Positions 7,206 through 43,581 of a stretch of 64,000 nt of DNA are shown one piece after another. The notes under the pieces were generated by a model. That model had not been told where the DNA came from. It did not search any database and was given only the letters and a program-made list of their open reading frames with translations. Origin of the DNA: Candidatus Harrisonbacteria bacterium (lineage in GTDB: Bacteria > Patescibacteriota > Minisyncoccia > UBA6257 > 1-14-0-10-44-23); contig JAHFLF010000001.1 in NCBI GenBank assembly GCA_023255625.1, forward strand, positions 94,255-158,254. The letters are read 5' to 3'. The position numbers and the translations under genes were made by a program. Position 1 is the stretch's first letter, and each line of letters begins with the position of its first letter.

Positions 7206-7453
7206 GCTCTTTAACATAACTTCAATCCTGCGCTCGCGCTGGGATTCTTTCAACCCTGAAGATGTGCGCTCCGATTTTTAAGACCATCCCGAAGGGTGAG
7301 CCCGGTCTTAAAAATCGGAGCGCACATCAAAAAATCAATCCCTGCTCTGGCGCAGGAGGGAGTCGTCAACAATTAGTTGACGGATTGCGATGCCCGGAAG
7401 AATTTCGGGCAAGGTCACGCGATCTCAAAAACACTCTGCCCTGCTCATTGCAT
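7206..7453 (+). promoter_or_regulatory. boxA-containing structured leader or ncRNA
   Basis: GCTCTTTAACA at 7206-7216, perfect 25-bp stem 7261-7328, several further hairpins. Confidence 0.6.
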
Positions 7454-7609
7454 ATGAGCAAAGCAATTGGTTTGATGATCGTGATCATCACCTTCGCCAT
7501 CTTTCTGCCGAATGTCTTTCATTCGGTTGAAACTCTGCTCCTGAAGTCGCTCGAGCTTGCCAACGCATCGCTCGACAACCTCGCTTCTATTGGACACCTT
7601 GTTCAGTAG
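7454..7609 (+). CDS. small membrane protein (51 aa)
   Basis: MSKAIGLMIVIITFAIFLP...; followed by a terminator. Confidence 0.6.
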   Translation: MSKAIGLMIVIITFAIFLPNVFHSVETLLLKSLELANASLDNLASIGHLVQ

Positions 7610-7615
7610 AGCTTG

Positions 7616-7654
7616 AGCACACAACCACCCTTCCGGTGGTTGTGCTCGTTTTTA
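7616..7654 (+). terminator. intrinsic terminator
   Basis: GAGCACACAACCACC...GGTGGTTGTGCTC followed by GTTTTT. Confidence 0.7.
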
Positions 7655-8194
7655 CGAATTCTCAATCCAAAATCGCATTTTGCGCGGCGTACCCTCGCCG
7701 ACGTCAAGAACATTTTCAAGTTTACCACCGCAGGATTCAATAATTTTGCGTGACGGCTCATTTGTTTCGTCGCAGGTAAGCAGCACCCGCGTAATTCCAA
7801 GAGAACGAGCAATCGGAAGCGCCTGCTCTAAAAGTAATTTTCCATATCCTCTCCTGCGTGCCCATGGCACAACATCATAGCCAATGTGCCCGCCCGTGCT
7901 CGCTAATTTTTCACTCAGCACGTGGCGGATGCTTACCCGACCCGCATACTTACCGTCAACAATCAGCCAGCGAGTGGTTGCCGGAACATGCTCACCATCT
8001 TTCGTGCGCCACCCATTATCAAATCGGTCGTGAAGGTGTGTAGCAAAATCCCGCTCCACCTCTTCAAGGTTGACTTCTAGATACCGCCCTTCTTGCTGAA
8101 GCTCCCGAATACCAGCAATATAACTTTCCTTATACTGCTGCGATGGCGGAACCAGCTGAACTCCTTTTTCAAAATTTTCTAATGTTCCTGACAT
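7652..8194 (-). CDS. GNAT-family N-acetyltransferase
   Basis: GGHIGYDV, RRRGYG, LTCDETNEPSRKIIE; likely start at 8194 because the upstream extension is tRNA-like sequence. Confidence 0.88.
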   Translation of the reverse strand: MSGTLENFEKGVQLVPPSQQYKESYIAGIRELQQEGRYLEVNLEEVERDFATHLHDRFDNGWRTKDGEHVPATTRWLIVDGKYAGRVSIRHVLSEKLASTGGHIGYDVVPWARRRGYGKLLLEQALPIARSLGITRVLLTCDETNEPSRKIIESCGGKLENVLDVGEGTPRKMRFWIENS

Positions 8195-8196
8195 AG

Positions 8197-8425
8197 TGCG
8201 CGTTGCTGGGATCGGACCAGCGGCCTTTTCAACTTCGCCCCGTACCGTGATGGGCATACTTTGTGGGCACTACAGGGATTGAACCTGTGACCTTTCCAAT
8301 GTGAATGGAACGCTCTACCACTGAGCTAAGTGCCCATCTCTGGTACGGGGTGTGAACCCCAGTAGTAGAACCTACTGGTTCACTACGGGGCACGGTGAAA
8401 CGCTCTACCACTGAGCTAAAGACGC
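8197..8425 (-). pseudogene. split outer tRNA-Val-like gene enclosing the intact tRNA-Val
   Basis: 5' half GCGTCTTTAGCTCAGTGGTAGAGCGTTTCA (8425-8396); 3' half TGAAAAGGCCGCTGGTCCGATCCCAGCAACGCGCA (8231-8197). Confidence 0.65.
8264..8335 (-). tRNA. tRNA-Val(CAC), intact
   Basis: GGGCACTTAGCTCAGTGGTAGAGCG-TTCCA-TTCACAT-TGGAA...GGTTCAATCC...GTGCCCA. Confidence 0.95.
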
Positions 8426-8580
8426 CCTTCTTCGCTTGGTTTGGTAACCAAGCTTCGCAAGGGCAAGCAACAATGAATATCACTGCTTGTCCCTCCGGAG
8501 CTTGAGTGCCAACGAGAGCGTAGGGGGAAGCTAAAGACGCCCTACTTCGCTAAACCCTACTGAAGCTTCGCAGGGCAAGC
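8414..8580. repeat. cluster of three CTTCGC...GCTTCG REP-like hairpins with a duplicated tRNA 5' end
   Basis: AGCTAAAGACGCCC...CTTCGCT...AAGCTTCGCA..GGGCAAGC twice, with an inverted copy between. Confidence 0.7.
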
Positions 8581-8622
8581 GTAGAACGAGTATAAACAAA
8601 AGAAACCCTTTATTCAAGCAAA

Positions 8623-9663
8623 TCAAACATGCAAACTAAGTGCATTTTCTTCGTGCATTCTTTTTAAATCATCAATTGAAGTCGGCTTATCAATTCCCGG
8701 ATATTCAGCCGTATTATCTGATTCCCACAGGCGAATCGGCAATAACTGAACTCCCTCTTTGATGCTTTCCAGAGAAACTTCTGTTGCGTCCTCACCAAAT
8801 CGAATACCGTGGAGTTGATACATACCACCTTTCAAAATAATAGGCTTGTTATCTTGAACCGCCGATTCTAAAGCAATAAATGACCATTCCTGCCCAACTT
8901 TTTTCAGAGCGCCCAGCAAACGGCCTCCTGCATATAACAACACGCGGTTTTTCTCCTCCCCAGCTGCAATGACATGATAGGCTTCAGCATTTTCACAAGC
9001 GCAAAAATCATATGTGCGAATTCTTTTAGCGCTATCAAGCTCGTATGGCGCCGACAACAATTGAATTCCGGAAACGGGAATGGCATTATCTAAATCGTAG
9101 TGCCTGGCTATCTCAGGATCAATCCCTTTAAGATCAAAGCTGGAGATAATACCCATAGGATAATACTCAAGTAACATTTTTTGAATCTCTTGCCCCTCTT
9201 TTTCAGAAAAAAGATTGCCATACACTCCAAAATTACCGCCAATAAGTCGCCCCATTTCTCTCCGCTCACCATACCCCCGATACAACCCTGACATAATGGG
9301 ACCGGCTAAGCTATTCATAATACGGTTAGCGCTGGGATGATCTCTCCAATAATCAAAAGTGAGGGTTAGTACTGATAGAGCGAGGCCGAGATCTTGCCTA
9401 TCATAAACAAGTCCGAGAATCGCTGATTCAACAGATTCAAGAAATTTAGATACCCCCTCTTTTTCTTCCAACTGGTGCAAAGAAAATTTCTCCCAAGGCC
9501 CTACAAAATGGCTTTTCAAAAGGATTGCATCGAACGTAGCAATATCGGCAATGCCGAGCCGATGTAGCCTATCAACCAATTCCGGAGACTCTTCAACATT
9601 AATAAGTTGCTCCACCGCCTTCTTGCTTTCAACTGGTTTTTCAAAAGGATTATCGTGATCCAT
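8623..9663 (-). CDS. hypothetical protein
   Basis: 346-aa ORF. Confidence 0.65.
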   Translation of the reverse strand: MDHDNPFEKPVESKKAVEQLINVEESPELVDRLHRLGIADIATFDAILLKSHFVGPWEKFSLHQLEEKEGVSKFLESVESAILGLVYDRQDLGLALSVLTLTFDYWRDHPSANRIMNSLAGPIMSGLYRGYGERREMGRLIGGNFGVYGNLFSEKEGQEIQKMLLEYYPMGIISSFDLKGIDPEIARHYDLDNAIPVSGIQLLSAPYELDSAKRIRTYDFCACENAEAYHVIAAGEEKNRVLLYAGGRLLGALKKVGQEWSFIALESAVQDNKPIILKGGMYQLHGIRFGEDATEVSLESIKEGVQLLPIRLWESDNTAEYPGIDKPTSIDDLKRMHEENALSLHV

Positions 9664-9689
9664 ATAATGATACTAGCTGATTACCGCCA

Positions 9690-9724
9690 AAACAAAAAGA
9701 CCGTCAACGACGGTCTTTTTGTTT
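9690..9724. terminator. terminator after rplL
   Basis: AAACAAAAAGACCGT-CAACG-ACGGTCTTTTTGTTT. Confidence 0.8.
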
Positions 9725-9730
9725 GAATTC

Positions 9731-10099
9731 TTATTTCAATTCCACCGTCGCTCCAGCAGCTTCGAGAGACTTCTTAAGAGTCTCGGCATCTGCCTTAGCC
9801 AGGCCAGTCTTAACTGACTTTGGAGCAGCATCAACAATGTCCTTGGCTTCTTTCAAGCCCAAGCCAGTTGCCTCACGGATAACCTTGATGACCTGAATCT
9901 TCTGCTCACCACCCTTGGTAATAACCACATCCCACGCAGTCTTCTCTTCTGCTTCGGCTGGACCAGCACCTGCGGCTGCCGGGCCGGCTGCCATTGCTGC
10001 TGAAACACCAAACTTCTCCTCCATTTTCTTCACGAGCTCTGCGAGCTCGGCAACGGTCAATTTCTCAACCGCGCTCATTATTGCGTCAAAATCTGCCAT
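9731..10099 (-). CDS. rplL: 50S ribosomal protein L7/L12
   Basis: [28 protein letters not shown]. Confidence 0.98.
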
Positions 10100-10208
10100 A
10101 AATAAGTTATAAAGTTATAAAGTTATAAAGTTCATCAAGTAGACACGGACGAACTCACAACTCTCTAACTTTTTAATTAATATTTTTAATTTCTCGACTT
10201 GATAAACT

Positions 10209-10739
10209 TTAAGAACTTGATGAACTTGCGACTAGCTCCGCGCGCTTTTTCCCGATTTCTTTCAGCGCGATGAGCAATTTGCGAATTGGGCCGGCCATCG
10301 TACCAACAACCTGCGCAAGGAGGACCTCACGGCTCGGGAGTTTAGCGATGACATTGAACTCGGCGACAGGAATCGCGCGGTTGCCCTCGCGGTCGTAGGC
10401 GCCAAGAACTTTGTACTCAATCTTGCTCTTTGCAAGCTCCTTTGAGAACTTAAAGATTGCAGCGGCAACAGAGGTCAAATCATCTTTTGCAAACACGGTT
10501 GCAACCTGCGCCTTGCTAGAGAGTGCATCCGGCTCAATGCCATGCTCTTTGAGCGCAATTTTGAGCAGACGCTTTTTAAAGACCTTGTAGGTCGCGCCAG
10601 CTTTTTTGAGCTCATTCTTCAGCCGATTGACATCTTTAGTCGGCGCGCCGGTAAAGTCAGCAAAGACGAGCGACTTGCTTCCCTTCACGAGCTTGCTACT
10701 CTCGGCAACATGCTCTTTCTTTTGTGCTTTTGTTAACAT
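10209..10739 (-). CDS. rplJ: 50S ribosomal protein L10
   Basis: MLTKAQK..., IAKLPSREVLLAQ; upstream of rplL. Confidence 0.95.
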   Translation of the reverse strand: MLTKAQKKEHVAESSKLVKGSKSLVFADFTGAPTKDVNRLKNELKKAGATYKVFKKRLLKIALKEHGIEPDALSSKAQVATVFAKDDLTSVAAAIFKFSKELAKSKIEYKVLGAYDREGNRAIPVAEFNVIAKLPSREVLLAQVVGTMAGPIRKLLIALKEIGKKRAELVASSSSS

Positions 10740-10839
10740 ACTAATATGCGATACCAATATACGAATTCATACCAATGCTACGAATGACAACGAATGAATT
10801 TCATACAATGGACCGCGATAAATTTTTCGACCTGACCAA

Positions 10840-10962
10840 TAAAAAATGGCCGCTAGGCCGTAGTGGAATCCCGTCTCATGTTACATGTTACATGTTACAC
10901 GATATACGAAAACTTCCTCGGGCAGAAATTAAGGGTTACCCCACTGCCTGTCTACGGATACA
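10840..10962 (-). ncRNA. L10 leader (rplJL autoregulatory RNA)
   Basis: CCGTAGACAGGCAG...CTTAATTTCTGCCCGAGG resembles the L10_leader core; promoter TTGACC-17-TATATT just upstream. Confidence 0.75.
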
Positions 10963-11223
10963 GACAATATACTAGAAAGTTTCGTAAAGGTCAACTCGCC
11001 ATCTCCGCAAACTAGGGGCAGGAAAGCGAAGCGGGTCCGGTCAGCAAGTAGCCGACCGGACCAGAACTTCAAGAGAGTTTTAAAATCAGGTATCTCTTGA
11101 TTACCCTTGCCGGAGGTTACCGGCGATGACTGCTCCTCTGTTTGGAGTAGCAGTGCCGAGGAGACCGACGGTAGTAAGGCGTCGTCGGTCTTGTGAGCCG
11201 CGGCAGTGGATGCCGCCGCCTCA

Positions 11224-11397
11224 TCAGAACGACCGCCTAGCCACTGCCGGCCGATGACACTGCTGCGCCATCGGCTTCTTGGTTGTCGCCTTGGGCCGAG
11301 CGACTGCAGGGCTCTGCGCAGCGGCCTTCAGTGCAGCAGCCCGCCGCTGAACCACGATCCGCCTCCTTGCCGCCAGGAAGTGATCGGCGCGACTCAC
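11224..11397 (-). CDS. possible small basic orphan protein (57 aa)
   Basis: GTG start overlapping the upstream stop (GTGA); MSRADHFLAARRRIVVQRRAAALK... Confidence 0.35.
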   Translation of the reverse strand: MSRADHFLAARRRIVVQRRAAALKAAAQSPAVARPKATTKKPMAQQCHRPAVARRSF

Positions 11398-11627
11398 GCG
11401 GACACCGAGGGCAGGACATCCACCCTCCCGATCCTGATCTGGGATGAGTCAGTCCTCATCTTCTCCGGGATGACGCCATCCGGATAGAACTGCTGGACCC
11501 GGTCCTCCATCGCCACCTCCACCGGCGGCGACTCCCGCGGATCCGCCGCTTCCAGAGCGAATCCTGCCGCGAGCGTCAGCTCGGTACGCACCCTCACGGC
11601 AGCCACACTGTCTCTCCCTCTCTTCAT
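11394..11627 (-). CDS. small orphan protein (alternative SD-led start at 11510)
   Basis: ATG after the structured leader; GGAGGTGGCG-ATG at 11510. Confidence 0.4.
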   Translation of the reverse strand: MKRGRDSVAAVRVRTELTLAAGFALEAADPRESPPVEVAMEDRVQQFYPDGVIPEKMRTDSSQIRIGRVDVLPSVSA

Positions 11628-11825
11628 CGCGCATCCTCGCTTTCTTTGTATGCGCGGTTGTCCCTGCTCGCCTGCCTCCCGAAAGGCAGATCTAATCCCA
11701 ACGAGCTTGGACGGATGCTCCGTTCTTCTAATAATTTCAAAAAAACGAAACATCCGTCCAATTAAGGACTTCAATGTGATTCAAAGAACTAAATCAGTTA
11801 TACATCTATTACTAGTTACTGTCAA
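11628..11825 (-). promoter_or_regulatory. sigma70 promoter, boxA-like motif and long-stem leader
   Basis: TTGACA-17-TATAAC; GTTCTTTGAA at 11789-11780; 24-bp G-U stem 11707-11761. Confidence 0.65.
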
Positions 11826-11858
11826 ATAACAGTAATATCAAATAGACGCATAACCTTT

Positions 11859-12545
11859 TTATTGTACTCCTCCATTTTCTTTTCGCCAAGCGTCAATCAA
11901 CTTGTGGTTCCCGCCTAAAAGTACTGGAGGTACTTTTAGAAGTTTGTAGTTTGTAGTTTGTAGTTTGTAGCGGATAGTTTCGGGTTTCGTAAAAACCGGG
12001 TACGAACCCTGATTCTCTTCCAATGATTCCGATTTGCCCAGCACGCCCGGAATTTGGCGCGAAACAGCATCAACAACAATTGCTGCCCCAAGCTCGCCGC
12101 CGGTAATTACATAATCTCCCAAAGAAATCTCCTCGTCAGCAACATACTGCGCCACGCGCTCGTCAACGCCCTCGTACCGGCCGCAAATAAAAATCAACTG
12201 GTCGTATTTTGCCAACCGCCGCGCCGCGGCGGCGTCAAAAACTTTCCCGCGAGTTGAGAACAAAATTACGCGGCTTTTCGTGCCCTTTGCCCTTTGCCCT
12301 TTGCCCTTCTTCGCGGCCGCTACTGCGGCCGCGATCGGCCCAAAACTCATCACCATCCCCGCCCCGCCCCCATAAGGCCGGTCATCTACTTTACGGTGTT
12401 TATCTTTTGAAAAAACCCTAATATCGTATGCCTGAATCTGTATCAATTTCTTTTCCTGCGCGCGCTTTAAAATAGACTCAGAAAAGTACGAATCCAAAAT
12501 CTTTGGAAAAATGGTAAGAATATCGAACCGGATCATGCGGGTCAT
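11859..12545 (-). CDS. trmD: tRNA (guanine-N1)-methyltransferase
   Basis: VDDRPYGGGAGMV, CGRYEGVDER, SLGDYVITGGE. Confidence 0.97.
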   Translation of the reverse strand: MTRMIRFDILTIFPKILDSYFSESILKRAQEKKLIQIQAYDIRVFSKDKHRKVDDRPYGGGAGMVMSFGPIAAAVAAAKKGKGQRAKGTKSRVILFSTRGKVFDAAAARRLAKYDQLIFICGRYEGVDERVAQYVADEEISLGDYVITGGELGAAIVVDAVSRQIPGVLGKSESLEENQGSYPVFTKPETIRYKLQTTNYKLLKVPPVLLGGNHKLIDAWRKENGGVQ

Positions 12546-12546
12546 A

Positions 12547-12771
12547 CTACCCTTTTGCTCGTCTTCCGGCAAATGCGAAAATTAAACCGATAACCCACAG
12601 TAAAGGCAAAACCAAAAATCCTAGAATGATAGTTCCGAAACCGCTACCCCAATCTTTTGGGAAAAATAATACAGCAAATAATAAAAGTATGATCGGAGCA
12701 ATTAAAAAAATCTTCGCAAGAACAGTAAAGGCATCCTTTGCTGGGTTCATCTTCGGACTATCATTCTCCAT
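12547..12771 (-). CDS. small two-TM protein
   Basis: Two hydrophobic segments. Confidence 0.55.
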   Translation of the reverse strand: MENDSPKMNPAKDAFTVLAKIFLIAPIILLLFAVLFFPKDWGSGFGTIILGFLVLPLLWVIGLIFAFAGRRAKG

Positions 12772-12801
12772 ATCTTTTTATTTTATCACAAAACCCGTTA
12801 C

Positions 12802-13029
12802 CTATAATAAATCAATAAATTCTTGAACCGTGAGCTCCGCTTGAATAATAATTGACTTGAGTGTCTTGGGCGCGAGCTCACGGTTATGATATGCAATCAC
12901 GACATGAAGATGTGGTTTGTCCAGAAACCGCAAATTGATATGACTACCTGTACGATGATGGATATAAAATCCGTAACGCAATAAGGCCGCTAAAACTTTA
13001 CGCGGAGTGCAATGTGGCAGTTTTGGCAT
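12802..13029 (-). CDS. hicA: HicA-family toxin
   Basis: MPKLP...GF...TGSH...ELAPKTLKSI. Confidence 0.88.
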   Translation of the reverse strand: MPKLPHCTPRKVLAALLRYGFYIHHRTGSHINLRFLDKPHLHVVIAYHNRELAPKTLKSIIIQAELTVQEFIDLL

Positions 13030-13036
13030 GCGAAAT

Positions 13037-13294
13037 TTATACCGCAACACTAACTCTCATTTGAGCCGATTCATCTTCTTTCGGTACTTGCTCTTTGGCC
13101 TTAATGAGACCGGCGACATAACATTCAATAGCATCTTTAGCCATTATGCGCGCCTCCTCCAGAGTTCTTCCTTCGGTAACCAAGCCAGGCAAAGCAGGAA
13201 CAGTCGCTGTATATCCGTGGAGTTCGTTACGCTCAAAAAAAACGGTATACTCGTAGATATTCCGCTTTATTTTTTGTTTTCGTACAATTGCCAT
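13037..13294 (-). CDS. hicB: HicB-family antitoxin (short form)
   Basis: GYTATVPALPGLVTEGRTLEEA. Confidence 0.9.
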   Translation of the reverse strand: MAIVRKQKIKRNIYEYTVFFERNELHGYTATVPALPGLVTEGRTLEEARIMAKDAIECYVAGLIKAKEQVPKEDESAQMRVSVAV

Positions 13295-13336
13295 ATTTGC
13301 ATAGTACTACAAAGCACAACGAAAATCCAACACCCG

Positions 13337-13576
13337 CTATTTCAGCAGCTTTTTCTTATGCAATCTATATACACCAAAAAGAATATAGACTACTCCAGCG
13401 CCAAAAGATGCAAGGGAAAAACACATTGCCCCATCACGGGCCCAAGAAAAACTTGTAGATTCCCAACCGAAGTTCGGCCCGTCAAAGATATGCTCTAAGC
13501 TAAAACTAAAAGATGCAGCTGCCAAAAGCCAGAGTATGCCGGCCGTCCAGAATGCAGCTTTAGGACTTTTTGGCAT
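13337..13576 (-). CDS. small membrane protein
   Basis: 79 aa with two hydrophobic stretches. Confidence 0.5.
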   Translation of the reverse strand: MPKSPKAAFWTAGILWLLAAASFSFSLEHIFDGPNFGWESTSFSWARDGAMCFSLASFGAGVVYILFGVYRLHKKKLLK

Positions 13577-13578
13577 AA

Positions 13579-14019
13579 CTAAAATTTCAGCTCATCCGCC
13601 ACCGGCCCATCAAACTTCGGCGTGCTGGGCGTGTACGGAGTGTCGTTTGGGACATACGGTGGCTCGTCTCTTGCCGGCGCGCTAGCCGCCGGTGCGGCGT
13701 ACGATGTAGTCTGCGGCTGGCGAGGCAATACTGGCCGAGCACTTGGCTCTGGGCGAACAAAGGTTGACCCCTCTGGCTCATCAATCTTTAAATTCACGCG
13801 GGCCTGATGCTTGATGCCAACAATGCGCAGCAAACTGCGAATCGCCTTTGCGGTTGCGCCCTGACGACCAACAACCTGACCCATGTCTTCTTTGTGCACC
13901 TTGAGCCGTAAGAGTACGCCCAGGTCATCAACACTCCGCTCAACCACAACTTGCTCCGGGTGATCAACAAGCGACTTTACTAAATACTCCAAAAACTCCT
14001 GATCTAAAAATTTCTCCAT
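13579..14019 (-). CDS. khpA: KH-domain RNA-binding protein KhpA with Pro-rich C-terminal tail
   Basis: EDMGQVVGRQGATAKAIRSLL; rpsP-trmD context. Confidence 0.88.
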   Translation of the reverse strand: MEKFLDQEFLEYLVKSLVDHPEQVVVERSVDDLGVLLRLKVHKEDMGQVVGRQGATAKAIRSLLRIVGIKHQARVNLKIDEPEGSTFVRPEPSARPVLPRQPQTTSYAAPAASAPARDEPPYVPNDTPYTPSTPKFDGPVADELKF

Positions 14020-14190
14020 GTGAGTAATCGCCAATATCGCGAATCTAGGCAAAATAACGCGAATGAATGCATTACAGACTAACTCGGATATTCAGCAAAT
14101 CTTTCGTAACGACCTTTTCTGTATAATGAAACTATTCTAGCAAAAATAAAAAAATCTGCAAACTCCATGCACTGATAAAATTATCCTTAG

Positions 14191-14226
14191 GCCATGTTAC
14201 AGCGTACTAGTACGCTGTAACATGGC
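14191..14226. repeat. perfect 36-bp palindrome, copy 2
   Basis: GCCATGTTACAGCGTACTAGTACGCTGTAACATGGC. Confidence 0.9.
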
Positions 14227-14232
14227 AACTAG

Positions 14233-14300
14233 CAGCGCATAGTTTCGGCCATAGGGAGCACTAAATCTTCTGTGCTCATCTTGACCGAAACTATGCGCTG
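14233..14300. repeat. long hairpin downstream of rpsP
   Basis: CAGCGCATAGTTTCGG...CCGAAACTATGCGCTG. Confidence 0.7.
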
Positions 14301-14306
14301 TAAATC

Positions 14307-14591
14307 TTATTTCTTTTCTTTAACTTTTTTGATTTCGTGATTCGCTCGGGTCTTCTGCTCAATCATCTTCTCCCGGACCAACAGGTTGTGGACGGTATCT
14401 GACGCCTGCGCGCCAACACCGAGCCAATACTTTACGCGCTCGGCATTAAAATGTGCTTTTTTCTCGCGCGGATTGTACCAGCCAAGATCCTCGGTTGAGT
14501 CTCCTTTTAACTTTGAGCGGCGCTCACCAACAACCAAACGAAACGCTGGCTGATGCTTTTTACCAATTCTTTTTAGTCTGATAGACAACAT
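14307..14591 (-). CDS. rpsP: 30S ribosomal protein S16
   Basis: MLSIRLKRIGKKHQP...EDLGWYNP...GAQASDTV. Confidence 0.97.
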   Translation of the reverse strand: MLSIRLKRIGKKHQPAFRLVVGERRSKLKGDSTEDLGWYNPREKKAHFNAERVKYWLGVGAQASDTVHNLLVREKMIEQKTRANHEIKKVKEKK

Positions 14592-14631
14592 AATAGACAA
14601 GATAATAGCTCATTCATGTCACACTTGTCAA

Positions 14632-15751
14632 TTACCACTTCTCATCATCCGCGTCGTTAAGCTCCAGGGGGACATTGCCCGGAAAATCAATTGCACTCGC
14701 GGCCCTCACAACATTGGATTCAACCCTGGCTATGCTACACCGCTTACTACTTTCTACGCGGCTATTATACCGCTTAACATTGCCGGTCGAATTATGCGCA
14801 GAGCCAATAACATAGAAGGTTTTATTTTCTCTGTGCGCATCCATCCACGCGTTCGTGGAGGCAACGGCTGCGTCTTCGCGGATTCGGGAAAGTTCGACAA
14901 GACGCTTTTGATGTTTTTCTTTGGCTTCGGCTGGAGCGCTTTCCTTAGGCGTATTCCGTATTACCTCCAACATTTCCATAGCTGCTGCGCGGTTATCACC
15001 GGTTTCCAGATTGAACTTACCCTCTCCATCAATCCGAGCCTTCCACGGCCCTCCCAAAGTTATATAAAGATTGTCCCCTTTAATAAGACGCTGCTCTGCG
15101 AGTTCGGCCAATTTTAATTCAAATCCCGGCCTATCTTCTGTAGTTGCGAAAGGCAAAAACTTTCTAAGACGAACTCTTAGGAAGTAGCCAAGAGTTGCCT
15201 TTTGGAATTCATCTAGATCAGGTCTATTCGAATTTTTATCATAGTCTTCGATCAGTGTGGCCAGAAGCTTTTGAACCGCCGCCGTATCGCCATTTCGCAT
15301 CGCAGTATTGAATAGGCCGTCGCATTGATTCAGATATTTATACAAAAAAGCAGCTTCTGTGTCAGCGGCAAGGTCAAGCCCCTCCAAAAAGAATGTATGA
15401 ATCCCATATTCCTCTCCTACATAGTTAATTAATGCTTCAATGTCTTTTTGATTTTGGATAATAAAGGGTGCGGCTCCGCTCTTCTCGTCTCTTGCGAGTT
15501 CGCCGGAACTATGGAGCTGTACCACTTCAAATATGGTACGCGGTCCGCGGATATCTTTTTTCTCCTTAAGTTCGAATCGAGATCTAATATCTCCAAGTTC
15601 AAAATGAAACGATTTTTTTGGTTCAGATTCGCGTCGAGCTATAGGGGGGGGGTTCTGGGCGTTCCGGCTCTTTACTGCAATCGAGAGCGCCAAGGGCAAG
15701 AGCCGCGGGTAAAATGAACTTCTTGAAATTGCTTTGTTCTGGTGAATCCAT
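14632..15751 (-). pseudogene. lipoprotein-like gene frameshifted at a C9 tract
   Basis: ATG at 15751 gives MDSPEQSNFKKFILPAALALGALDC; removing one C at 15644-15652 joins it to the 14632 frame. Confidence 0.65.
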
Positions 15752-15752
15752 A

Positions 15753-25634: not shown

Positions 25635-26339
25635 CTACACCAACGGCCTGCGTTGCTTTTCAATAATTTCAAGTGCTTTTTTGGCTGCGTCTACCTCGCC
25701 GTCTTGTTTGGATGGCCCGCTCCCCTGTGCAACCAGTTTGTCACCAAAATACACGCCAATCGTAAACATTTTTTTGTGGTCAGGCCCTTCTGAAGATAAT
25801 ACTTTGTATACCGGCGTAACTTTAAGCGAGGCCTGCACCTTTTCTTGCAGCAAACTTTTTGCGTCAACATGAAGCGCGTTACGGATAATATCCTCAAGCC
25901 GACTCGTCACAAAGGTGTTAATAAACTTTTTGGCCGCTTTATACTCCCCGTCTAAATAAATGGCGCCAATGAGTGACTCAAATGCATTGGCTAGAATAAC
26001 CTCACGGGCACGCCCGGTGTCTTTCGCCTCACCGCGAGAAAGCAAGACGGCTCCGTCAATCCCGATGCCGCGGGCAACTTCAGCAAGCGTTACATAGTTA
26101 ACGAGCGCAGCACGCACCGAAGTCATCCAGCCCTCTTCTTTGTCTGGGTAGCGATTAAACAGCTCCTCGGTAATCACAAGCTCAAGCACGGCGTCGCCCA
26201 AAAATTCCAGCCGCTCGTTGTTGGCTATCTTCCACTCCGGATGCTCGTTTAAGTAGGAGCGGTGCGTGAGCGCCTCCTGGAGGAGAGCGACACTTGAGAA
26301 CTTATATTTGATTGTTTTCTGGAATTCTTCTTGTTGCAT
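25635..26339 (-). CDS. rnc: ribonuclease III
   Basis: ALTHRSY, NERLEFLGDAVLEL, C-terminal dsRBD. Confidence 0.98.
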   Translation of the reverse strand: MQQEEFQKTIKYKFSSVALLQEALTHRSYLNEHPEWKIANNERLEFLGDAVLELVITEELFNRYPDKEEGWMTSVRAALVNYVTLAEVARGIGIDGAVLLSRGEAKDTGRAREVILANAFESLIGAIYLDGEYKAAKKFINTFVTSRLEDIIRNALHVDAKSLLQEKVQASLKVTPVYKVLSSEGPDHKKMFTIGVYFGDKLVAQGSGPSKQDGEVDAAKKALEIIEKQRRPLV

Positions 26340-26423: not shown

Positions 26424-26861
26424 CTAAGAAGATTTCTCTTCTTCTTTCATTTTCTGATACACCGTGCCGAGAACGCCATTAATGAATTTGCCCGAGTTTG
26501 GCCCGCCATAACTTTTTGCCAGCTCAATCGCCTCGTCAATCGCTACTGCTGGCGGCACCTCTTTGCGATCCGCATACTTCAATTCATAAAGTCCGATCCG
26601 AAGCGCATTACGATCAATTACTGCGATTTGTTCAATCGGCCACTCCGGCGCGGCTTCAACAATCAATTTGTCAATTTCAACCAGATGCTCGACAATACCG
26701 TGAGCAATCTTGGCCGTAAATTCTTTTTCTCTCTCAAGCCCAGGCCCAAACTCCATGCTATTGCGCGCGATAATATCGTCAAGATTAATTTTGCGGCCTT
26801 CAAAATCCCACTCGTAGAGGGATTGAAGAACTATTGAGCGGGCGAGTTGTCGTGATGCCAT
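26424..26861 (-). CDS. nusB: transcription antitermination factor NusB
   Basis: [32 protein letters not shown]. Confidence 0.97.
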
Positions 26862-34329: not shown

Positions 34330-34342
34330 GAACTCCTCCCTC

Positions 34343-35564: not shown

Positions 35565-35568
35565 GCCG

Positions 35569-35883: not shown

Positions 35884-35901
35884 TTCATAATTTCTACCCA
35901 G

Positions 35902-38400
35902 ATGGACGAAGAACCAAAAGCAAAAAATAACGCGATCGAGCAGCGGGAAATCACCGATGAGCTAAAAGAAAGCTATCTGGACTATGCCATGAGCGTGATT
36001 GTCGCCCGTGCTCTGCCAGATGTGCGCGACGGCTTAAAGCCGGTGCAGCGCCGGATTCTCTGGGGCATGTGGGACTCGGGCGTAACCGCTGATGCCAAAT
36101 TCCGAAAATCAGCCGACATCGTCGGCGAGGTCATGGGTAAATACCACCCGCACGGCGACTCTTCTATTTACCAAACCATTGTCCGGATGGTTCAGGATTT
36201 TAGTTTCCGTTATCCGCTCTGTATCGGCCAGGGTAATTGGGGTTCGGTAGATGGCGACGAGGCCGCGGCTTATCGTTACACTGAAACCAAACTTGCCCGC
36301 GTGGCCGAGGCGCTACTGGCTGATATTGATAAAGACACTGTGGACTGGACGCCAAACTATTCCGGCACCAAGCAGGAACCAAAATTTTTACCAACTAAAA
36401 TCCCGAGTCTTTTGCTAAACGGTACAGCCGGTATCGCCGTCGGCATGGCCACCAACATTCCGCCACACAATCTGGGCGAGGTTGTTGATGCAACTTTACA
36501 CCTGGCCGATAACCCGAAGGCAACGACCGAGGATCTGACTGAATTTATCAAAGGGCCGGACTTCCCGACCGGCGGCGTCATTTATAATAAAAAAGATATT
36601 TTAGAGTGTTACACCACCGGCCGCGGCCCAATCACCATGCGTGGCGTCGCGGAAATCCGCGAGCGAAAAGGCGCTAAGGGCTTTGATATCGAGGTTACAG
36701 AAATCCCCTACCAAGTTAATAAAAGCGAACTGCTGATGCGCATGGCCGAGCTCGTACAGGAGAAAAAAATCGAGGGCGTACGCGACATCCGCGACGAGAG
36801 CGATAAAAACGGCATGAGCATCGTCATCGAGCTTAAAAATGATGCCAATCCGCAAAAAATCCTGAATCAACTTTTTGAATATACTGATTTGCAGAAAAAC
36901 TTTGCCGTGAACATGGTGGCGCTAACCGACGGCGGATTGCAACCGCAAACTATGTCGTTACGCGATATGCTGGCGGCATTTTTAGATCACCGCAAATTAG
37001 TGGTTAAGCGCCGCGGCGAACACGACCTGCGCAAAGCCAAAGAACGCGAACACATTTTGGAGGGACTGGAAAAAGCGCTTTCGGCAATCGACAAAATCAT
37101 CGCCCTGATCCGCAAATCCGACAGCCGCGAAGAGGCGCACGGCAACTTAATGAAGCAGTTCAAATTCAGCGCTTTGCAGGCAAATGCAATTTTGGAAACC
37201 AAACTGGCGACTCTTGCGCACCTGGAAAGATATAAAATAGAAGAGGAATTGAAAGAAAAACGAAAACTGATTGCCGAACTAGAAGCGCTCTTAAAAAGCA
37301 CGGCAAAAATTCTGGCCGTTATTAAAGAAGAACTAAAAGAAGTCCGGGAACGATTTGGCGACGAGCGACGTACGCGCGTTGTAGCCGGCGGCATAAAGGA
37401 CTTCTCCGAAGAAGACCTGATTGCCAACGAGGAGACGATTATCACGCTTAGCCAGAGCGGCTACATCAAGCGCGTTGCGCCAAGCAGCTTTAAAGTGCAA
37501 AACCGCGGCGGCAAGGGGCTCATCGGCTCCGATGTTGCCGACGACGACTTTATTTCTCAAATCAACTTTGCCCACACGCACGACAACCTGCTCTTCTTTA
37601 CCGACCGCGGTCGCGTCTTCCAAACCAAAGTCTGGGAATTGCCGGCGGCCAGCCGCCAGAGCAAGGGCAAGCCGGTGCACAACTTCCTGGAGATGCCGCT
37701 TGAAGAAAAAGTAAATGCGATTATTACATATCCGAGCGACTTAGGACAAAGGACTAAGGACAAAGGACAGGATGCAAAGTCCTCGGTTCTAAGTTCTATG
37801 TTCTTAGTTATGAGTACAGTCCGCGGCATGATTAAGAAAACGCCGCTGGCCGATTTTGGCAATGTTCGCCGCTCTGGCATTATCGCAATCGGGCTACACA
37901 AAGACGACACTCTGCAGTGGGTTAAACTATCAACTGGTACTGATGAAATAATCATTACGACTCACGACGGCCAGTCAATTCGCTTCCCGGAAAAACAGGC
38001 ACGCTCGATGGGCCGCTCCGCCGCGGGCGTTACCGCGATCAAGCTCAAGGGCAAAGATTTTGTCAGTTCGATGAATGTCATCACAAAGGAGCAGGAAAAA
38101 GAATGTAAGTTGCTCGTGGTGATGAGCAACGGTTATGGCAAACAAACTCCGCTTGGCCAATACCGCCTGCAAAGCCGTGGCGGATCAGGCATCAAAACCG
38201 CCGAGGTTACAGCCAAAACCGGCGCCGTTATGGACGCGCGAATAGTTTCAAATGAAAAAGAACTGATCGCACTTTCAGCCAAGGGCCAGGTTATCCGAAC
38301 TGATATTGGCTCAATCCGAACCGCCTCGCGTGCCACGCAGGGTGTCCGAATTATGAATGTGGAAAGTGGCGACCATGTAATTGGAATCATCTGCTTCTAG
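35902..38400 (+). CDS. gyrA: DNA gyrase subunit A
   Basis: [23 protein letters not shown], GyrA-box QNRGGKG. Confidence 0.98.
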
Positions 38401-38402
38401 GG

Positions 38403-38525
38403 CACAAATATCGCAGATTTGCTTTTTAGAGGGACTCTCGGAGCGCGACGGCGCGAGAGCGAGGGCAATTTTTCAGCAGAAAAATATGCCTGTGCCCTCT
38501 AAAAAGCAAAGCTGCGATATTTGTG
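38403..38525 (+). repeat. Y-shaped palindromic element
   Basis: 31-bp arms (1 mismatch) around a conserved two-hairpin core. Confidence 0.85.
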
Positions 38526-38539
38526 GTATCATAAATTCT

Positions 38540-39853
38540 ATGAAACTATCCCGCACTCAAACCATCATCGTGGCCATTGTCGGAGTTATCATCCTGGCCG
38601 GTATTCTTATTTTCCTGGGCATTATTCCGGGTCTGCGCCAGGAGGTAGCAAATCAAAACGATAAATTGACCGGCGACTTAGTCGTCTGGGGAGTTTTTGA
38701 TAGCGAAACTGCGGTTAGTAAAACTCTGATCGCCGACTTTAAAGCCCGACACCCGAATGTCAATATCAGCTACCGCTCGCTCGATGCCCGCACTTATGAA
38801 GATGACTTAATCAATGCCCTAGCCGCCGGCAGCGGCCCTGATGTTTTCATGGTCAAAAACACCTGGCTGCCCAAGCATTACAACAAACTTGATCCGCGCG
38901 ACCCGAAAGAATTTACCGTGGTTAATTTCGCGGATTTATACCCGCAGGTTGCGACTAAAGACTTTGTACGCGAAGGCAAAGTGTACGCAATGCCACTATA
39001 TATAGACACGCTCGCCACAATCTACAACAAAGCATTGTTCGACGCCGCCGGCATTGCGCAGCCGCCGCGCAGCTGGGAGGAGTTCGCGCAGATTATCCCG
39101 GAGCTTCGCAAGCTAGATGAAAGTGGCCGAATAACCCAGGCCGCCGCGGCAATCGGCGGTAGTAATAAAAATATTAATGAGGCAAATGATCTGCTTTTTC
39201 AGATGATGCTTCAGTACGGAGTAGAAATGACTAATGACGGTCTCTCCTCCGCTACATTCGCAAACGGTGGCCAGGGTCCTTTGGACTTCTACCTTTCCTT
39301 CGCTAATTCCAGAAGCACAAACTATACCTGGGATCGCGGCTTCCACTACTCTATTGATGGCTTTGCCGAAGAGTCGGTCGCAATGATTTTTAACTACGGC
39401 TATCAGCTCGAGCAACTCAAAGAAAAAAATCCGTTTTTACAAATCGGCGTCGCCCCGATGCTCCAGCCAAAAAATATTGACCGGCCGATAACCTACGCCA
39501 GCTACTTCGGACTGGGCGTCTCGGCCACCAGTCAAAACAAAACCGTCGGTTGGACATTTGTAGATGAATCAACCGCCGGCGATGGCGCGACGAATGCTAA
39601 ATATCTAAACGAAGCACACCGCTCACCGGCCCTGCGCTCTTTGATCGCCGCCTCGACCAACGACTCTCAAGTCGGCGTCTTTGCCAAGCAGGCACTCATG
39701 GCCACCTCCTGGCCACAAGTTGATAGCACTGCTATTAATGTCGCCTTTGCCGGCATGCTGGAATCAATTGTTACCGGCCAACTGACCTCGCAGCGCGGGC
39801 TGCAACAAGCCGAAGATCAGGTTACCCAGATTATGCAAAGATCAGAAAATTAG
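38540..39853 (+). CDS. extracellular solute-binding protein (family 1, sugar type)
   Basis: N-terminal TM, GPDVF, YNKALF...PRSWEE. Confidence 0.85.
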   Translation: MKLSRTQTIIVAIVGVIILAGILIFLGIIPGLRQEVANQNDKLTGDLVVWGVFDSETAVSKTLIADFKARHPNVNISYRSLDARTYEDDLINALAAGSGPDVFMVKNTWLPKHYNKLDPRDPKEFTVVNFADLYPQVATKDFVREGKVYAMPLYIDTLATIYNKALFDAAGIAQPPRSWEEFAQIIPELRKLDESGRITQAAAAIGGSNKNINEANDLLFQMMLQYGVEMTNDGLSSATFANGGQGPLDFYLSFANSRSTNYTWDRGFHYSIDGFAEESVAMIFNYGYQLEQLKEKNPFLQIGVAPMLQPKNIDRPITYASYFGLGVSATSQNKTVGWTFVDESTAGDGATNAKYLNEAHRSPALRSLIAASTNDSQVGVFAKQALMATSWPQVDSTAINVAFAGMLESIVTGQLTSQRGLQQAEDQVTQIMQRSEN

Positions 39854-39863
39854 ATTTTTCTAT

Positions 39864-40343
39864 ATGAAAAAAAATCGCGCTATTCTACTGGCCTCGACCC
39901 TCTTAGCCCTAATATTAATCTCTGGTAGCCAAATAGCACTGGCAGTCGGAGACGCCAGTCAGAAACCACTGCCGGGCGCAGATGTTCAAGCCAGCGACCT
40001 CGGTAACGGCATTATTCCGGATTGCGAGCCGAGTAACACCAATATCGGCCCAGGCGAACCCGGTTGCGGCCTGGACGACGCAATTCAGGTAATTTATAAC
40101 ATCATTAGCTACATCAGCTACATTATTATCCCCATCGCCGTCTTGTTGCTCGGTTATGCCGGATTTACTATAATGACTTCAGCGGGTAACAGCGAAAAAG
40201 TTACTCAAGCATGGAAGATGATCCGGGTAACCGCGATTGGTCTGGCGATTATATTTCTTTCGACGCTGATTGTCAGATACATTTTTAAAGCCCTGGATGT
40301 AAATACCCAAAAATTTGGCCCGACCAATATAGAAATCAAATAG
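39864..40343 (+). CDS. VirB2/TrbC-like pilin
   Basis: YAGF.IMTSAGNSEKVTQAWK helical hairpin. Confidence 0.75.
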   Translation: MKKNRAILLASTLLALILISGSQIALAVGDASQKPLPGADVQASDLGNGIIPDCEPSNTNIGPGEPGCGLDDAIQVIYNIISYISYIIIPIAVLLLGYAGFTIMTSAGNSEKVTQAWKMIRVTAIGLAIIFLSTLIVRYIFKALDVNTQKFGPTNIEIK

Positions 40344-40355
40344 AAATACAATAAC

Positions 40356-40700
40356 ATGCGCCGATTTTCATTATTTTTTTTCACTCTGCTTCTGCCCGTC
40401 TTTGCATATGCTATTACCGACCCCAAAAAAGATGGCATTCCCCTGCCCGACCCGCTCAATGTAAATAGCTTGCCGGAATTATTTGACAAGATCTTCCGCT
40501 TTGCTGCTATTCAAGTTGGCCCTTTCATCGTAATTATCTTCGTGCTGGTCGGCGGCTATCAAATGATTTTCTCCGGCGGTGAGGCGGAAAAATTCTCAAA
40601 AGGAAAAAATACGATTGTTTACACAGTTATCGGCTACGCCCTGCTCTTAATGTCTTACGGCATTGTAGACATAATCAAATCAGCATTAACCGTAAAATAA
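40356..40700 (+). CDS. VirB2/TrbC-like pilin
   Basis: GGYQMIFSGGEAEKFSKGKNTIVYTVIG. Confidence 0.78.
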   Translation: MRRFSLFFFTLLLPVFAYAITDPKKDGIPLPDPLNVNSLPELFDKIFRFAAIQVGPFIVIIFVLVGGYQMIFSGGEAEKFSKGKNTIVYTVIGYALLLMSYGIVDIIKSALTVK

Positions 40701-40706
40701 ATTGCT

Positions 40707-41066
40707 ATGAGCAAAGCGTTTCGGTCTCTCGGCGTAAAAATTTTCTTCTGTAGCGTCATCCTTTCGCCCGTTTTCGCCCCAGTTTTTACCCTTGCCGAAG
40801 ATGACCCGCTGAAGGGTCTGCCAAAAGATGCCGCAGGCGTTATGCAGGTTTTAGGAAATATCACCAATTGGCTATTCACTGGTATTCTGATAATTTCTGT
40901 GATAATGATTATAGTAGCCGCATATAAGTATCTGTTTAGCGGCGGCAGCGAAGAGGCAACCTCTGCGGCTCGCAAGACGATTGTCTACGCCGTGATTGCT
41001 CTGGCGGTCGCGATGCTGGCCAAAGGCGTGGCTCCACTTGTAAAAACACTATTATCAGTAAAATAA
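40707..41066 (+). CDS. VirB2/TrbC-like pilin
   Basis: AAYKYLFSGGSEE...ARKTIVYAVIA. Confidence 0.78.
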   Translation: MSKAFRSLGVKIFFCSVILSPVFAPVFTLAEDDPLKGLPKDAAGVMQVLGNITNWLFTGILIISVIMIIVAAYKYLFSGGSEEATSAARKTIVYAVIALAVAMLAKGVAPLVKTLLSVK

Positions 41067-41072
41067 CAGTAT

Positions 41073-41453
41073 ATGAAAAAAATCATATTTATTCTGCCGC
41101 TCGCTGTAATGTTTTTAGCATTAATCGTACCAATGACTCCTGCCCTTGCGATTGATTGTCCTGGCGGAGGCAGTACTGCCGGCGGTCAGCCCTGCCAATT
41201 ACCAACCAACGCAAATCTTCAGCCAAATGTTTTGCTGGCAACGATAGAGGAAATTACTGACTGGATGTTTACCGGACTCTTGGTACTTGCGGTTGTTATG
41301 TTGATTATCGCCGCCTATCACTATCTTTTCTCCGGAGGCAGCGAGGAGGGAACGCAAAAAGGCAAGAACTATATCATCTACACAGTTATTGCAATTGCAG
41401 TTGCAATGTTAGCCAAAGGAATTACCTTCATCGTCTACCAGATTCTGAAATAG
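41073..41453 (+). CDS. VirB2/TrbC-like pilin
   Basis: AAYHYLFSGGSEEGTQKGKNYIIYTVIA. Confidence 0.78.
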   Translation: MKKIIFILPLAVMFLALIVPMTPALAIDCPGGGSTAGGQPCQLPTNANLQPNVLLATIEEITDWMFTGLLVLAVVMLIIAAYHYLFSGGSEEGTQKGKNYIIYTVIAIAVAMLAKGITFIVYQILK

Positions 41454-41561
41454 AAAAATTGACTTTAAAATCGAACGGGCCCGACTGGCAACATACTCCC
41501 TTGCGGGAGACGCCAATCGGGCCTCGTTTTGTGCTGCGCGTGGTAGTGGAGCTCTACCGCG

Positions 41562-42044
41562 CTACTTCTTCTTCTCGAGCGCCCTGGCCTCGAACTGCTG
41601 GTCAGGGAGTCCGGCTTCGACATAGAAGACCGGATAGCGAGCCGTCTCGAAGACGGAGTTCTCGCCCAGGATGGCTCCACCATCCTCGAGCATGATGCGG
41701 AACTTCCGCTTGCACACTCGTTTGCCGATCTCCTGCACATCCTCGATCGTGTACGAGAGACCGGCCGCTACCTCTACACGAGCCCACTGCCCGGGTTGCA
41801 GCGGGAAAGCCGCAACGGCTCCCGGGAACGCCAGCGTGTACTCCCCTCCGTCGAGATTCGGAGGTACGCTCTTCACAGCGCTGGGCCGCCAGGAGACCAG
41901 CACTGCAATTCCGGCTCCAAGAAGGAGTAGGGTGATCGCGGCGGCCAGCCCCATGAAAAGCTTCGTCCGCCCGAAACTGGCCACGCTCACGCAATCCTCC
42001 ACATCATCGGGTGCATCTGCGGAGTTGGCAGGATTGCTACTCAT
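41562..42044 (-). CDS. orphan membrane-anchored protein, SD-led
   Basis: GGAGGTTCGACAAC-ATG, ATGA-coupled to the upstream gene. Confidence 0.55.
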   Translation of the reverse strand: MSSNPANSADAPDDVEDCVSVASFGRTKLFMGLAAAITLLLLGAGIAVLVSWRPSAVKSVPPNLDGGEYTLAFPGAVAAFPLQPGQWARVEVAAGLSYTIEDVQEIGKRVCKRKFRIMLEDGGAILGENSVFETARYPVFYVEAGLPDQQFEARALEKKK

Positions 42045-43294
42045 GTTGTCGAACCTCCAGTCGGCACAGACAGACCGCCGGCCGTCAGACCGGCGGCAAG
42101 CCGCGCCGCCGCCGAGACCGATCCATCGTCAGCTACGACAACTTTCAGATCTGCCACCTTGATGCCTGCCTGCGCAAGCGCGCCGGCATAGGCAAGATTC
42201 GCCGTGACACCAAGCTTGACAGCACTCTCCGTCATCGCCGTGACACCAGGAGCCGTCTGCTCCGCAGCTTTGGCATCCTGTTGCGACTTCAACACCTTCT
42301 GCGCATACTCGATGCTCTTAGGGTCATACACCACCCCGATGAGCTCGCAGTTGTCGAAGGTGCATCCGATGTGCAGCTCGTGGTGTGACAGAGCGGTTTC
42401 AGAAATCCCGCCCTGATTGAACAGCACATTCATCTGATCCAGCGCTGCACGTACTGCAACTGCGTGCTTGCCGTACCAGACAAGCACATTGCCAGGCAGA
42501 ATCTCAACGAGTGACTGTCCGGCGGCAACACCCTCAACTCTTCGCCGGAATGCCGCGTCCTTGTGCAACGGAATGTGCAGTGACAACTCCGACTCGACGA
42601 ACAGCGCAAGCGCATGCCTGTTCTCGTCAAGATCCTTGCGGCTCATCTTCGCAAGCATCGACGTCAGGAGCCCCTTGATGGGACCCCTGATACCGACCTC
42701 CACGTGATGCGCGGCAAAGTTCCTCTGCCTCCTCTTCGCACCCTCGATCACCCAGTTGCCGTAGACGTTCAACCCATCCGAGTCAGCGATACGCGGGTCC
42801 GGGCAGACGGTCACCTGGAAGGTGACTTTGACAACTTCATGAGTCGTGAGCTGCTGTTCCACCTCGATCGTTATCGGCAACGGATTTGTCTCGATCTGAG
42901 CCATCCTGTTACCGATCCCGACCTTGTGCAGGCCAGGCCCGTGTGTCGCAGAGCGGATCTTGCCGCCACTGCTCTGAACCGCATACGATCGTCCACCGAC
43001 TGAACGGACGAACATAGCGAGCCAGAACCAGAGAACGCCAAGATAGGCGGCACCCAGACCCACGATGACCATGCCGAAAATGGCGCAGCTCATCCAGATG
43101 AATCCGCACAAGATCGAGACCAGAGCAATCGCGTAGGCGATACCCAAGCCCTGGAAATGCGGAGTCAACTCTCTCTTGAGGAAAGGCTCAATCTCCTCCC
43201 CCTCAAGAACCGTGCAGGTCACGAAAGCGTGCCCCGCCGGTGCAACTGTTGTCCCGGGCGATACTACCGCCGGGGGCGCAACATGACTAGTCAT
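42041..43294 (-). CDS. membrane protein with possible SPFH/band-7-like domain, SD-led
   Basis: GGGAGGTAGCG-ATG; two TMs then GPGLH...VVKVTFQVTV. Confidence 0.55.
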   Translation of the reverse strand: MTSHVAPPAVVSPGTTVAPAGHAFVTCTVLEGEEIEPFLKRELTPHFQGLGIAYAIALVSILCGFIWMSCAIFGMVIVGLGAAYLGVLWFWLAMFVRSVGGRSYAVQSSGGKIRSATHGPGLHKVGIGNRMAQIETNPLPITIEVEQQLTTHEVVKVTFQVTVCPDPRIADSDGLNVYGNWVIEGAKRRQRNFAAHHVEVGIRGPIKGLLTSMLAKMSRKDLDENRHALALFVESELSLHIPLHKDAAFRRRVEGVAAGQSLVEILPGNVLVWYGKHAVAVRAALDQMNVLFNQGGISETALSHHELHIGCTFDNCELIGVVYDPKSIEYAQKVLKSQQDAKAAEQTAPGVTAMTESAVKLGVTANLAYAGALAQAGIKVADLKVVVADDGSVSAAARLAAGLTAGGLSVPTGGSTT

Positions 43295-43581
43295 CGCTAC
43301 CTCCCAGCCCGTAGAACGGGCCGTCGTTAGAAACCAACGGCCCAAACCGGGCCAGCCACGCCGTACGCCAGCGTTGGCCCTATTCGACTGTCCCATGCAG
43401 GCCCCACACGAGGCCAACATTGCACGAACAGGATTTTTGCGGACCAGATAAAATGCCCCGCAAAAATCCTGTTCGTGCCCTTGAACGCTCTTTAGTTTTC
43501 AAAGTACATTCGGAAAATTCCTGTTTTAGACAGAACTCCCCACCAACAGCATATTTAGCATATTTTCATACCATTTGTCAA
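43295..43581 (-). promoter_or_regulatory. promoter, boxA-like motif and long-stem leader
   Basis: TTGACA at 43581; TGTACTTTGAAAAC at 43508-43495; perfect 21-bp stem 43422-43478. Confidence 0.65.

Follow-up and report, generated by a model that had tools for sequence, protein, structure and literature searches.

Conserved boxA-bearing 5' leaders of accessory genes in a Candidatus Harrisonbacteria genome

A 64,000-nucleotide stretch of contig JAHFLF010000001.1 from a Candidatus Harrisonbacteria bacterium, an ultra-small inhabitant of groundwater, was investigated (the window; source genome designated G000). A preliminary description had reported leaders resembling those of rRNA operons (a boxA motif, a long stem and a cluster of hairpins) on three units that encode no rRNA, here called sites 1, 2 and 3. 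The analysis showed that the feature is real and conserved, and that the site-1 leader with the small gene behind it is its most notable part. Leaders combining boxA with a long stem formed a minority class, and the three leaders had a common layout, not a common ancestry. They were best read, at a probability of about 0.5, as three separately evolved and conserved 5' mRNA leaders of accessory genes, in which boxA and a long helix would gate translation rather than block Rho.

boxA motifs at rRNA and mRNA promoters

As described earlier, boxA-like motifs were located at 7206–7216 on the plus strand (site 1) and at 11778–11789 (site 2) and 43495–43508/43507 (site 3) on the minus strand. The 16S rRNA leader of G000 carried the motif 185 nt upstream of the gene. 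Compared with this boxA of the organism itself, site 2 was identical over its first 10 nt and site 3 differed at one of 12 positions. By the consensus sequences given in the available part of PMC13753749, the G000 motif was intermediate between those of E. coli and B. subtilis, and the site-1 boxA fitted the E. coli type. A weight matrix allowing for the degenerate forms of mRNA leaders gave a sense-strand best match with p<0.1 in 16 of 27 16S-leader sequences of relatives, and boxA-like matches were located 54–380 nt ahead of 16S genes.

Across the order, 260 matches to a sigma-70-type promoter followed by boxA were found in 97 of 151 genomes, versus 49 matches in 42 of the 151 when the motif was reversed (both sums over per-genome tables), an excess of about 5-fold. 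Sixty stretches chosen around such matches held 68 boxA promoters. The spacing of boxA peaked at 6 nt past the -10 box (18 of 68), approximately at the transcript start, with a range of 4–33 nt in mRNA leaders. A Shine-Dalgarno (SD)-led open reading frame (ORF) was found downstream of 44 of 62 boxA promoters versus 80 of 169 other promoters, and most boxA leaders were short. boxA was also kept at orthologous loci in relatives. The motif behaves as boxA and, by analogy, probably binds NusB-S10.

Further boxA-led units were observed in G000. A promoter and boxA stood right before an AdoCbl-II (B12) riboswitch (C12:20803–20931; L153:259–332; 58 bits, cut-off 36.5) upstream of a 633-aa ORF. Six other units were located at C12:10233(-), C12:104321(+), C8:402464(+), C1:62383(-), C8:353088(+) and C4:6403(+); most of them combine a promoter and a long stem with an orphan ORF led by an SD. 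In a partial coverage of the literature, no paper on boxA mRNA leaders in the candidate phyla radiation (CPR) was found; a 224-motif survey (PMC5737381) may describe related CPR motifs in its supplement.

Long stems downstream of boxA

The pairing reported for the three stems was confirmed. Stem 1 (7261–7328) has 25 Watson-Crick pairs. Stem 2 (11707–11761, minus strand) has 24–25 pairs including five G-U pairs, with -34.8 kcal/mol on the transcribed strand versus -18.3 kcal/mol on the other. Stem 3 (43422–43478, minus strand) has 21 Watson-Crick pairs and one G-U pair. All three regions folded more stably than shuffled sequences (z of -10.6, -6.2 and -7.8 for regions 1, 2 and 3), and when 56 non-coding boxA-like sites were ranked on downstream folding energy, the three sites were in the top five. 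The distance from boxA to the start codon was 248, 162 and 213 nt, which makes leader 2 shorter than the 200–280 nt proposed earlier.

A genome-wide count of boxA plus stem, suggested as a check in the preliminary description, favoured the association but was weak alone. A long stem was found 9–75 nt downstream of five of 103 pattern sites, with a mean of 0.79 for permuted motifs, and three of 500 permuted motifs reached five hits. This test was partly circular, the boxA pattern having been fitted to the three flagged sites, and no more than two of its five boxA-plus-stem hits fall beyond the window; the weight is carried by the cross-genome tests. By a strict measure, strong stems were more frequent behind boxA promoters (7 of 68) than behind the others (3 of 194; p=0.004), but with a lenient helix measure the two sets were not clearly different (39 of 68 versus 100 of 194). 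A loose purine-rich helix motif was present in 5 of 17 boxA stems versus 18 of 323 others (p=0.003), a lead only, as the motif was defined after many sequences had been inspected.

A single RNA family for all three stems was rejected: a covariance model of stem 3 missed stems 1 and 2, and beyond the six loci on which it was trained it gave a single weak hit in 150 genomes. Together with the low share of strong stems at boxA promoters, this argues against the one shared boxA-plus-stem class proposed before. A joint MAFFT alignment of stems 2 and 3 was not achievable. The GATTTTT/AAAAATC shared by two stems had been noted as a possible signal; it occurred in 8 of 384 long stems and was not retained in orthologous stems.

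RNase III substrates are continuous duplexes of about two helical turns. The duplexes at the three sites measure 21–25 bp, and helix P1 of the site-1 leader, described below, measures 19–31 bp in all 17 members. U-G wobbles were present in P1 and stem 3. For the proximal and distal boxes of RNase III, the literature covered gives loose preferences only. Processing by RNase III, as proposed earlier, is consistent with stems that covary and have an RNase III-like length, but stem 1 is not supported as the functional stem.

The site-1 leader and its small membrane protein gene

The flagged 25-bp stem 1 was found to be a copy of a dispersed palindromic repeat inserted in the loop of a conserved helix, P1. 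The repeat family has 10 copies in G000, which share a conserved core of 22 nt but differ in their arms (21–31 bp in eight copies). At the same loop position, G001 holds a different insert and G002 none. The nine other copies lie on contig C8, for example at 38328, 75100, 205037 and 210520. The arms are perfect although they differ from copy to copy, and several more core families of the same build occur in G000.

P1 is formed by a 5' arm at 7222–7233 and a purine-rich 3' arm at 7350–7362, the latter able to pair with the 5' arm or with a downstream tail. It is followed on the plus strand by the hairpin P2 with an A-rich loop (7363–7383; predicted in 17 of 17 members), the hairpin P3 with an invariant GUC (7385–7423; with an extra inserted hairpin in G000) and a pyrimidine tail (7433–7444) that is complementary to the P1 3' arm and ends 9 nt before the AUG. 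Behind it, a gene without SD at 7454–7609 encodes a 51-aa small membrane protein, and an intrinsic-terminator-like hairpin at 7615–7647 closes the unit. The 51-aa ORF had been overlooked because of a length filter. Homologues were found in 17 of 401 genomes from four families, and in 75 clusters of a representative library. The 17 proteins have 44–59 aa, with a best 19-residue hydropathy of 2.3–2.7, and the family has no Pfam match.

The same leader layout was found at all 17 loci: usually a promoter, an optional boxA, P1, P2, P3 with the invariant GUC, an A/C linker and the pyrimidine tail, with a terminator-like hairpin and T run 3' of the ORF in 15 of 17. In the G001 orthologue, a consensus promoter lies 22 nt upstream of boxA. 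P1 was 94% paired over 13 positions, with two-sided changes at 7 of 13; 0 of 500 shuffles scored as high. In sequence, the tail is a repeat of the P1 5' arm, and its predicted pairing with the P1 3' arm amounts to -9.8 to -17.2 kcal/mol; the tail ends 7–12 nt before the AUG in 16 of 17 members. For comparison, 2.6% of 648 ATG-started G000 ORFs reach -12 kcal/mol. When the 5' arm was removed in silico, most members refolded into a tail helix closing P2 and P3. P2 and P3 are based on per-sequence folds and not on covariation, since RNAalifold returned no consensus structure for the site-1 core and MAFFT misaligned both hairpins.

The site-1 leader is predicted to be an uncatalogued RNA with two alternative folds. 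No Rfam family matched the 17 loci in an E-value mode scan. The earlier idea of undescribed non-coding RNAs (ncRNAs) holds in that site 1 is an uncatalogued structured RNA, but it is a cis-leader, and sites 1 and 3 directly abut conserved ORFs. A triple helix at site 1 was ruled out by polarity, the tail being antiparallel-complementary to the purine strand.

Two neighbouring elements were also observed. An 82-aa hydrophobic ORF (6913–7161, minus strand) is divergent from unit 1 and has 57–60% identity in G001 and G002, with no Pfam match. In G352, a sub-threshold SAM-I riboswitch match (L143:1075–1237, minus strand; 32 bits, cut-off 44.4) is divergent from the site-1 leader.

Sites 2 and 3

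Site 3 lies between a pilin cluster and tRNA-Leu. A likely promoter with a clear -35 and a degenerate -10 box stands at 43553–43581 on the minus strand, and its orthologous site has the consensus in G001, G004, G005 and G006. Promoter, boxA and a homologous stem were found in the same interval of G001, G002 (with a degenerate boxA), G004, G005 and G006. Stem 3 is conserved and covarying in six genomes of the family, with two-sided changes at 9 of 19 consensus pairs. The first gene of unit 3 (42041–43294, minus strand) encodes a 417-aa SD-led membrane protein, SPFH/Band-7-like (Atlas score 0.95; Pfam E-value 0.0012, under cut-off). The second (41562–42044, minus strand; 160 aa) is homologous to the second gene of G001, and the latter matches its counterpart in G002. 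First cargo genes at this locus were barely alignable with each other, and the second genes of G000, G001 and G002 were linked by weak homology. Unit 3 is inserted, on the opposite strand, within an array of five T4SS-pilin-like small genes (39864–41453 and 43800–44144, plus strand). Its neighbours are the tRNA-Leu, a PaaX-like gene and a tyrosine recombinase.

Site 2 lies in the trmD-rplJ interval. A sigma-70-like promoter (11797–11825, minus strand) ends 7 nt before boxA, and the same layout, with boxA variants, was found in G001, G002 and G003. Related long stems were present in G001, G002 and G005, the last without boxA. The cargo was unrelated and different in every genome. In G000 it is a 77-aa SD-led, GC-rich orphan ORF (11394–11627, minus strand) that may or may not be translated, as the homologue search returned only the ORF itself. 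A HicA-HicB toxin-antitoxin pair (12802–13294, minus strand) was observed nearby, flanked by trmD on one side and a KH-like gene on the other. Units 2 and 3 are both GC-rich insertions, with a GC content of 0.60 versus 0.48 for the window.

Genome setting and trans factors

G000 comprises 0.93 Mb in 12 contigs with a completeness of 94.9%, and the proteins of the window cluster with Minisyncoccota (= Patescibacteria/CPR). No rRNA was found within the window, where Rfam 15 at the gathering score gave tRNAs only. The 16S (C8:318238–320148, 1.9 kb) and 23S (C1:22146–26763, 4.6 kb) genes are unlinked, and both have insertions. Related long hairpin elements were observed directly before the 23S gene and within it near the 3' end. 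Long perfect hairpins are common in this genome (254 strand-hits at at least 16 bp).

The anti-SD sequence is absent from the 16S 3' end of G000, as from all 23 of the 16S 3' ends examined across the order; such loss is reported for part of the Parcubacteria in the available text of PMC9297842. SD-like sites were nonetheless found in G000 at 38 of 65 ORFs with a GC content at third codon positions (GC3) of at least 0.65, versus 21 of 613 ORFs with GC3 <0.55.

The preliminary description placed both nusB and rnc in the window, and both were recovered there: nusB at 26424–26861 and rnc, encoding RNase III with a double-stranded RNA-binding domain, at 25635–26339, each on the minus strand and each a likely trans factor. 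Genes nusG and nusA were present in five of five genomes, and a SuhB-family gene in three of five, G000 among them. Rho was not found: the Rho_N model matched 0 of 41 genomes and Rho_RNA_bind 0 of 1, with controls matched in 9 of 14 and G000 94.9% complete. Classical anti-Rho antitermination is therefore unlikely, and the Nus antitermination suggested earlier has, in that sense, no detected Rho to oppose. Three metatranscriptome contig sets did not cover units 1–3 and give no evidence either way.

Proposed mechanism and alternative explanations

By analogy with E. coli suhB and lambda nutL, NusB-S10 would probably load on boxA and tether the 5' end of the transcript to RNA polymerase. RNase III would then, somewhat more probably than not, cut the long helices (19–31 bp at site 1; 21–24 bp at sites 2 and 3) and remove the 5' piece bearing boxA. 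At site 1, folding models predict that the purine strand freed by the cut would pair with the tail before the AUG, so that P2 and P3 become enclosed in a three-way junction. This refolded state might be either on or off; masking of the start is the conventional reading. No such refold was found at sites 2 and 3, and the only effect of cutting there would be to release the Nus tether or change stability. A refold of the site-1 kind, with the stem 3' arm masking the SD, was rejected as a general rule: it reached p<0.05 in 6 of 26 leaders, with p=0.13 at site 3 and p=0.047 at site 2, after another 10 leaders that lacked an SD-led ORF had been excluded.

Several results weigh against gating by boxA and helix. 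About 90% of promoter-plus-boxA sites have no long stem, and the strict boxA pattern was found in only 5 of 25 full-length 16S leaders. Related genomes are non-independent samples, and the loci of the promoter comparison were picked around boxA matches. For comparison, neither the 16S nor the 23S gene had an evident long-range processing stalk. At site 1, unit 1 has no clear promoter in G000, and a good boxA (score at least 7.5) was found in only 6 of 17 members, so the site-1 RNA can do without it. Full-length folds always paired the purine strand upstream (probability 0.79–1.0). The tail was often paired elsewhere anyway, and its drop in unpaired probability after truncation was clear in about half of the members. 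Covariation of cognate arm and tail was marginal (p=0.04 for all 17; p=0.07 with one per genus).

The boxA might instead load an rrn-type Nus complex only for elongation speed, folding chaperoning and read-through of hairpins or intrinsic terminators, with the stems as uncut 5' stabilisers. The position of boxA at the very 5' end, the GC-rich and heavily folded cargo, and the boxA ahead of the B12 riboswitch leader agree with this, as does the interference of the rrn complex with intrinsic termination reported in the accessible portion of PMC13753749. It is nevertheless a rather unlikely account, as it leaves unexplained the fixed distance of the site-1 tail from the AUG and the helix of at least 19 bp in all 17 members, and a terminator-like hairpin ends unit 1 only about 400 nt past boxA. 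Alternatively, the motif may be a vestige or an initial-transcribed element close to the promoter, with the long stems as background intergenic repeats. The motif does peak at the predicted start, the genome is rich in long palindromes, stem 1 among them, and the strict test gives only two boxA-plus-stem sites beyond the window. The same motif, however, lies 54–380 nt before 16S genes as well as 4–33 nt from the -10 box in mRNA leaders, and stems 2, 3 and P1 each belong to a single locus and show strand bias or covariation, which makes this explanation improbable.

The leaders might also be precursors of independent, trans-acting ncRNAs freed by processing. Strong folding, a stem-3 RNA better conserved than the downstream protein, and the orphan, highly structured cargo of unit 2, unrelated between genomes, would suit such precursors. 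All 17 site-1 copies, however, stand directly before the same ORF family (the copies were found via that ORF), and a weak, sequence-only site-1 model found no ORF-free copy in G000 and, across 149 further genomes of the class, a single marginal hit. With no terminator between leader and ORF and no Rfam match, ncRNA precursors are quite improbable. Equally hard to credit is a reading in which, after the P1 cut, the site-1 leader forms an SD-like helix of its own from an AGGAGG-type strand and a CCUCC-type tail and switches translation on. Part of that reading, and no more probable, is that the rRNA Nus/RNase III machinery has been redeployed for translation licensing in anti-SD-less, Rho-less bacteria. 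The alternative helix at site 1 ends a few nt further upstream than the SD cores of G000 (mostly 5–10 nt). According to the accessible text of PMC9297842, helix 26 of 16S rRNA is conserved in Parcubacteria and its role is not known; if the SD mimic were true, it would give helix 26 a job, docking in the place of the SD helix.

Significance

BoxA on mRNA leaders is already published for gamma-proteobacteria, which makes the general class less surprising. NusB-boxA has mainly been known for opposing Rho and for its part in rRNA folding, and its role where Rho is dispensable is left open in the part of PMC13753749 consulted. In the present order, boxA stands at the head of many accessory mRNAs although no Rho was found, which offers a natural setting for testing Nus function that does not depend on Rho. 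Together with its small membrane gene, the site-1 leader forms an uncatalogued compact unit that bears on start-site choice by anti-SD-less ribosomes.

Comparison with known systems

LOOT RNA (Rfam RF03000) is, like the site-1 leader, a multi-hairpin CPR leader. Assignment of site 1 to LOOT was rejected, with no match in five of five genomes tested; LOOT occurred elsewhere in four of the five, with a different sequence and no boxA. One LOOT copy was located in G000 at C8:186080–186197 (79 bits), five copies in G002 and three in G368.

In type I toxin-antitoxin leaders such as tisB, hok and aapA, a small hydrophobic ORF is combined with alternative folds and processing-linked translation. Site 1 resembles them in its small hydrophobic ORF and its structured leader with predicted alternative folds. 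It differs in having no family match; a scan limited to sequence patterns gave no consensus antisense promoter at any of the 17 loci.

The E. coli suhB leader and a C. koseri toxin gene share with the present leaders a boxA in the 5' untranslated region ahead of an SD-led gene. In the available text of PMC5725501, the suhB boxA represses translation over up to 100 nt in a non-steric manner, for which a loop between boxA and RNA polymerase is proposed, and the outcome is reinforced by Rho termination. Here, no Rho was found, and there are 2–10 sites per genome in many genomes, with GC-rich orphan cassettes as targets and a 16S without anti-SD. The same text likens suhB control to lambda nutL, which represses translation of N from a boxA-containing site about 200 nt upstream across a structured spacer, a layout like the present one. 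Unlike lambda N, the present leaders are chromosomal, not of phage, and no boxB or N-like protein was identified. Wilson, in 2002, reportedly found that RNase III cutting relieves the translational repression of lambda N.

The leaders differ from rrn leaders in that they head short mRNAs with no rRNA downstream, usually at the transcript start, with no consistent boxB or boxC and no Rho found. Their stems are local hairpins before ORFs and not leader-trailer stalks. They are like the rrn boxA/Nus system (NusB-S10, NusA, NusG, SuhB and S4, as listed in the accessible part of PMC13753749) in that they carry the same motif as the 16S leader of G000, a genome that encodes nusB, nusA, nusG and a SuhB-family gene.

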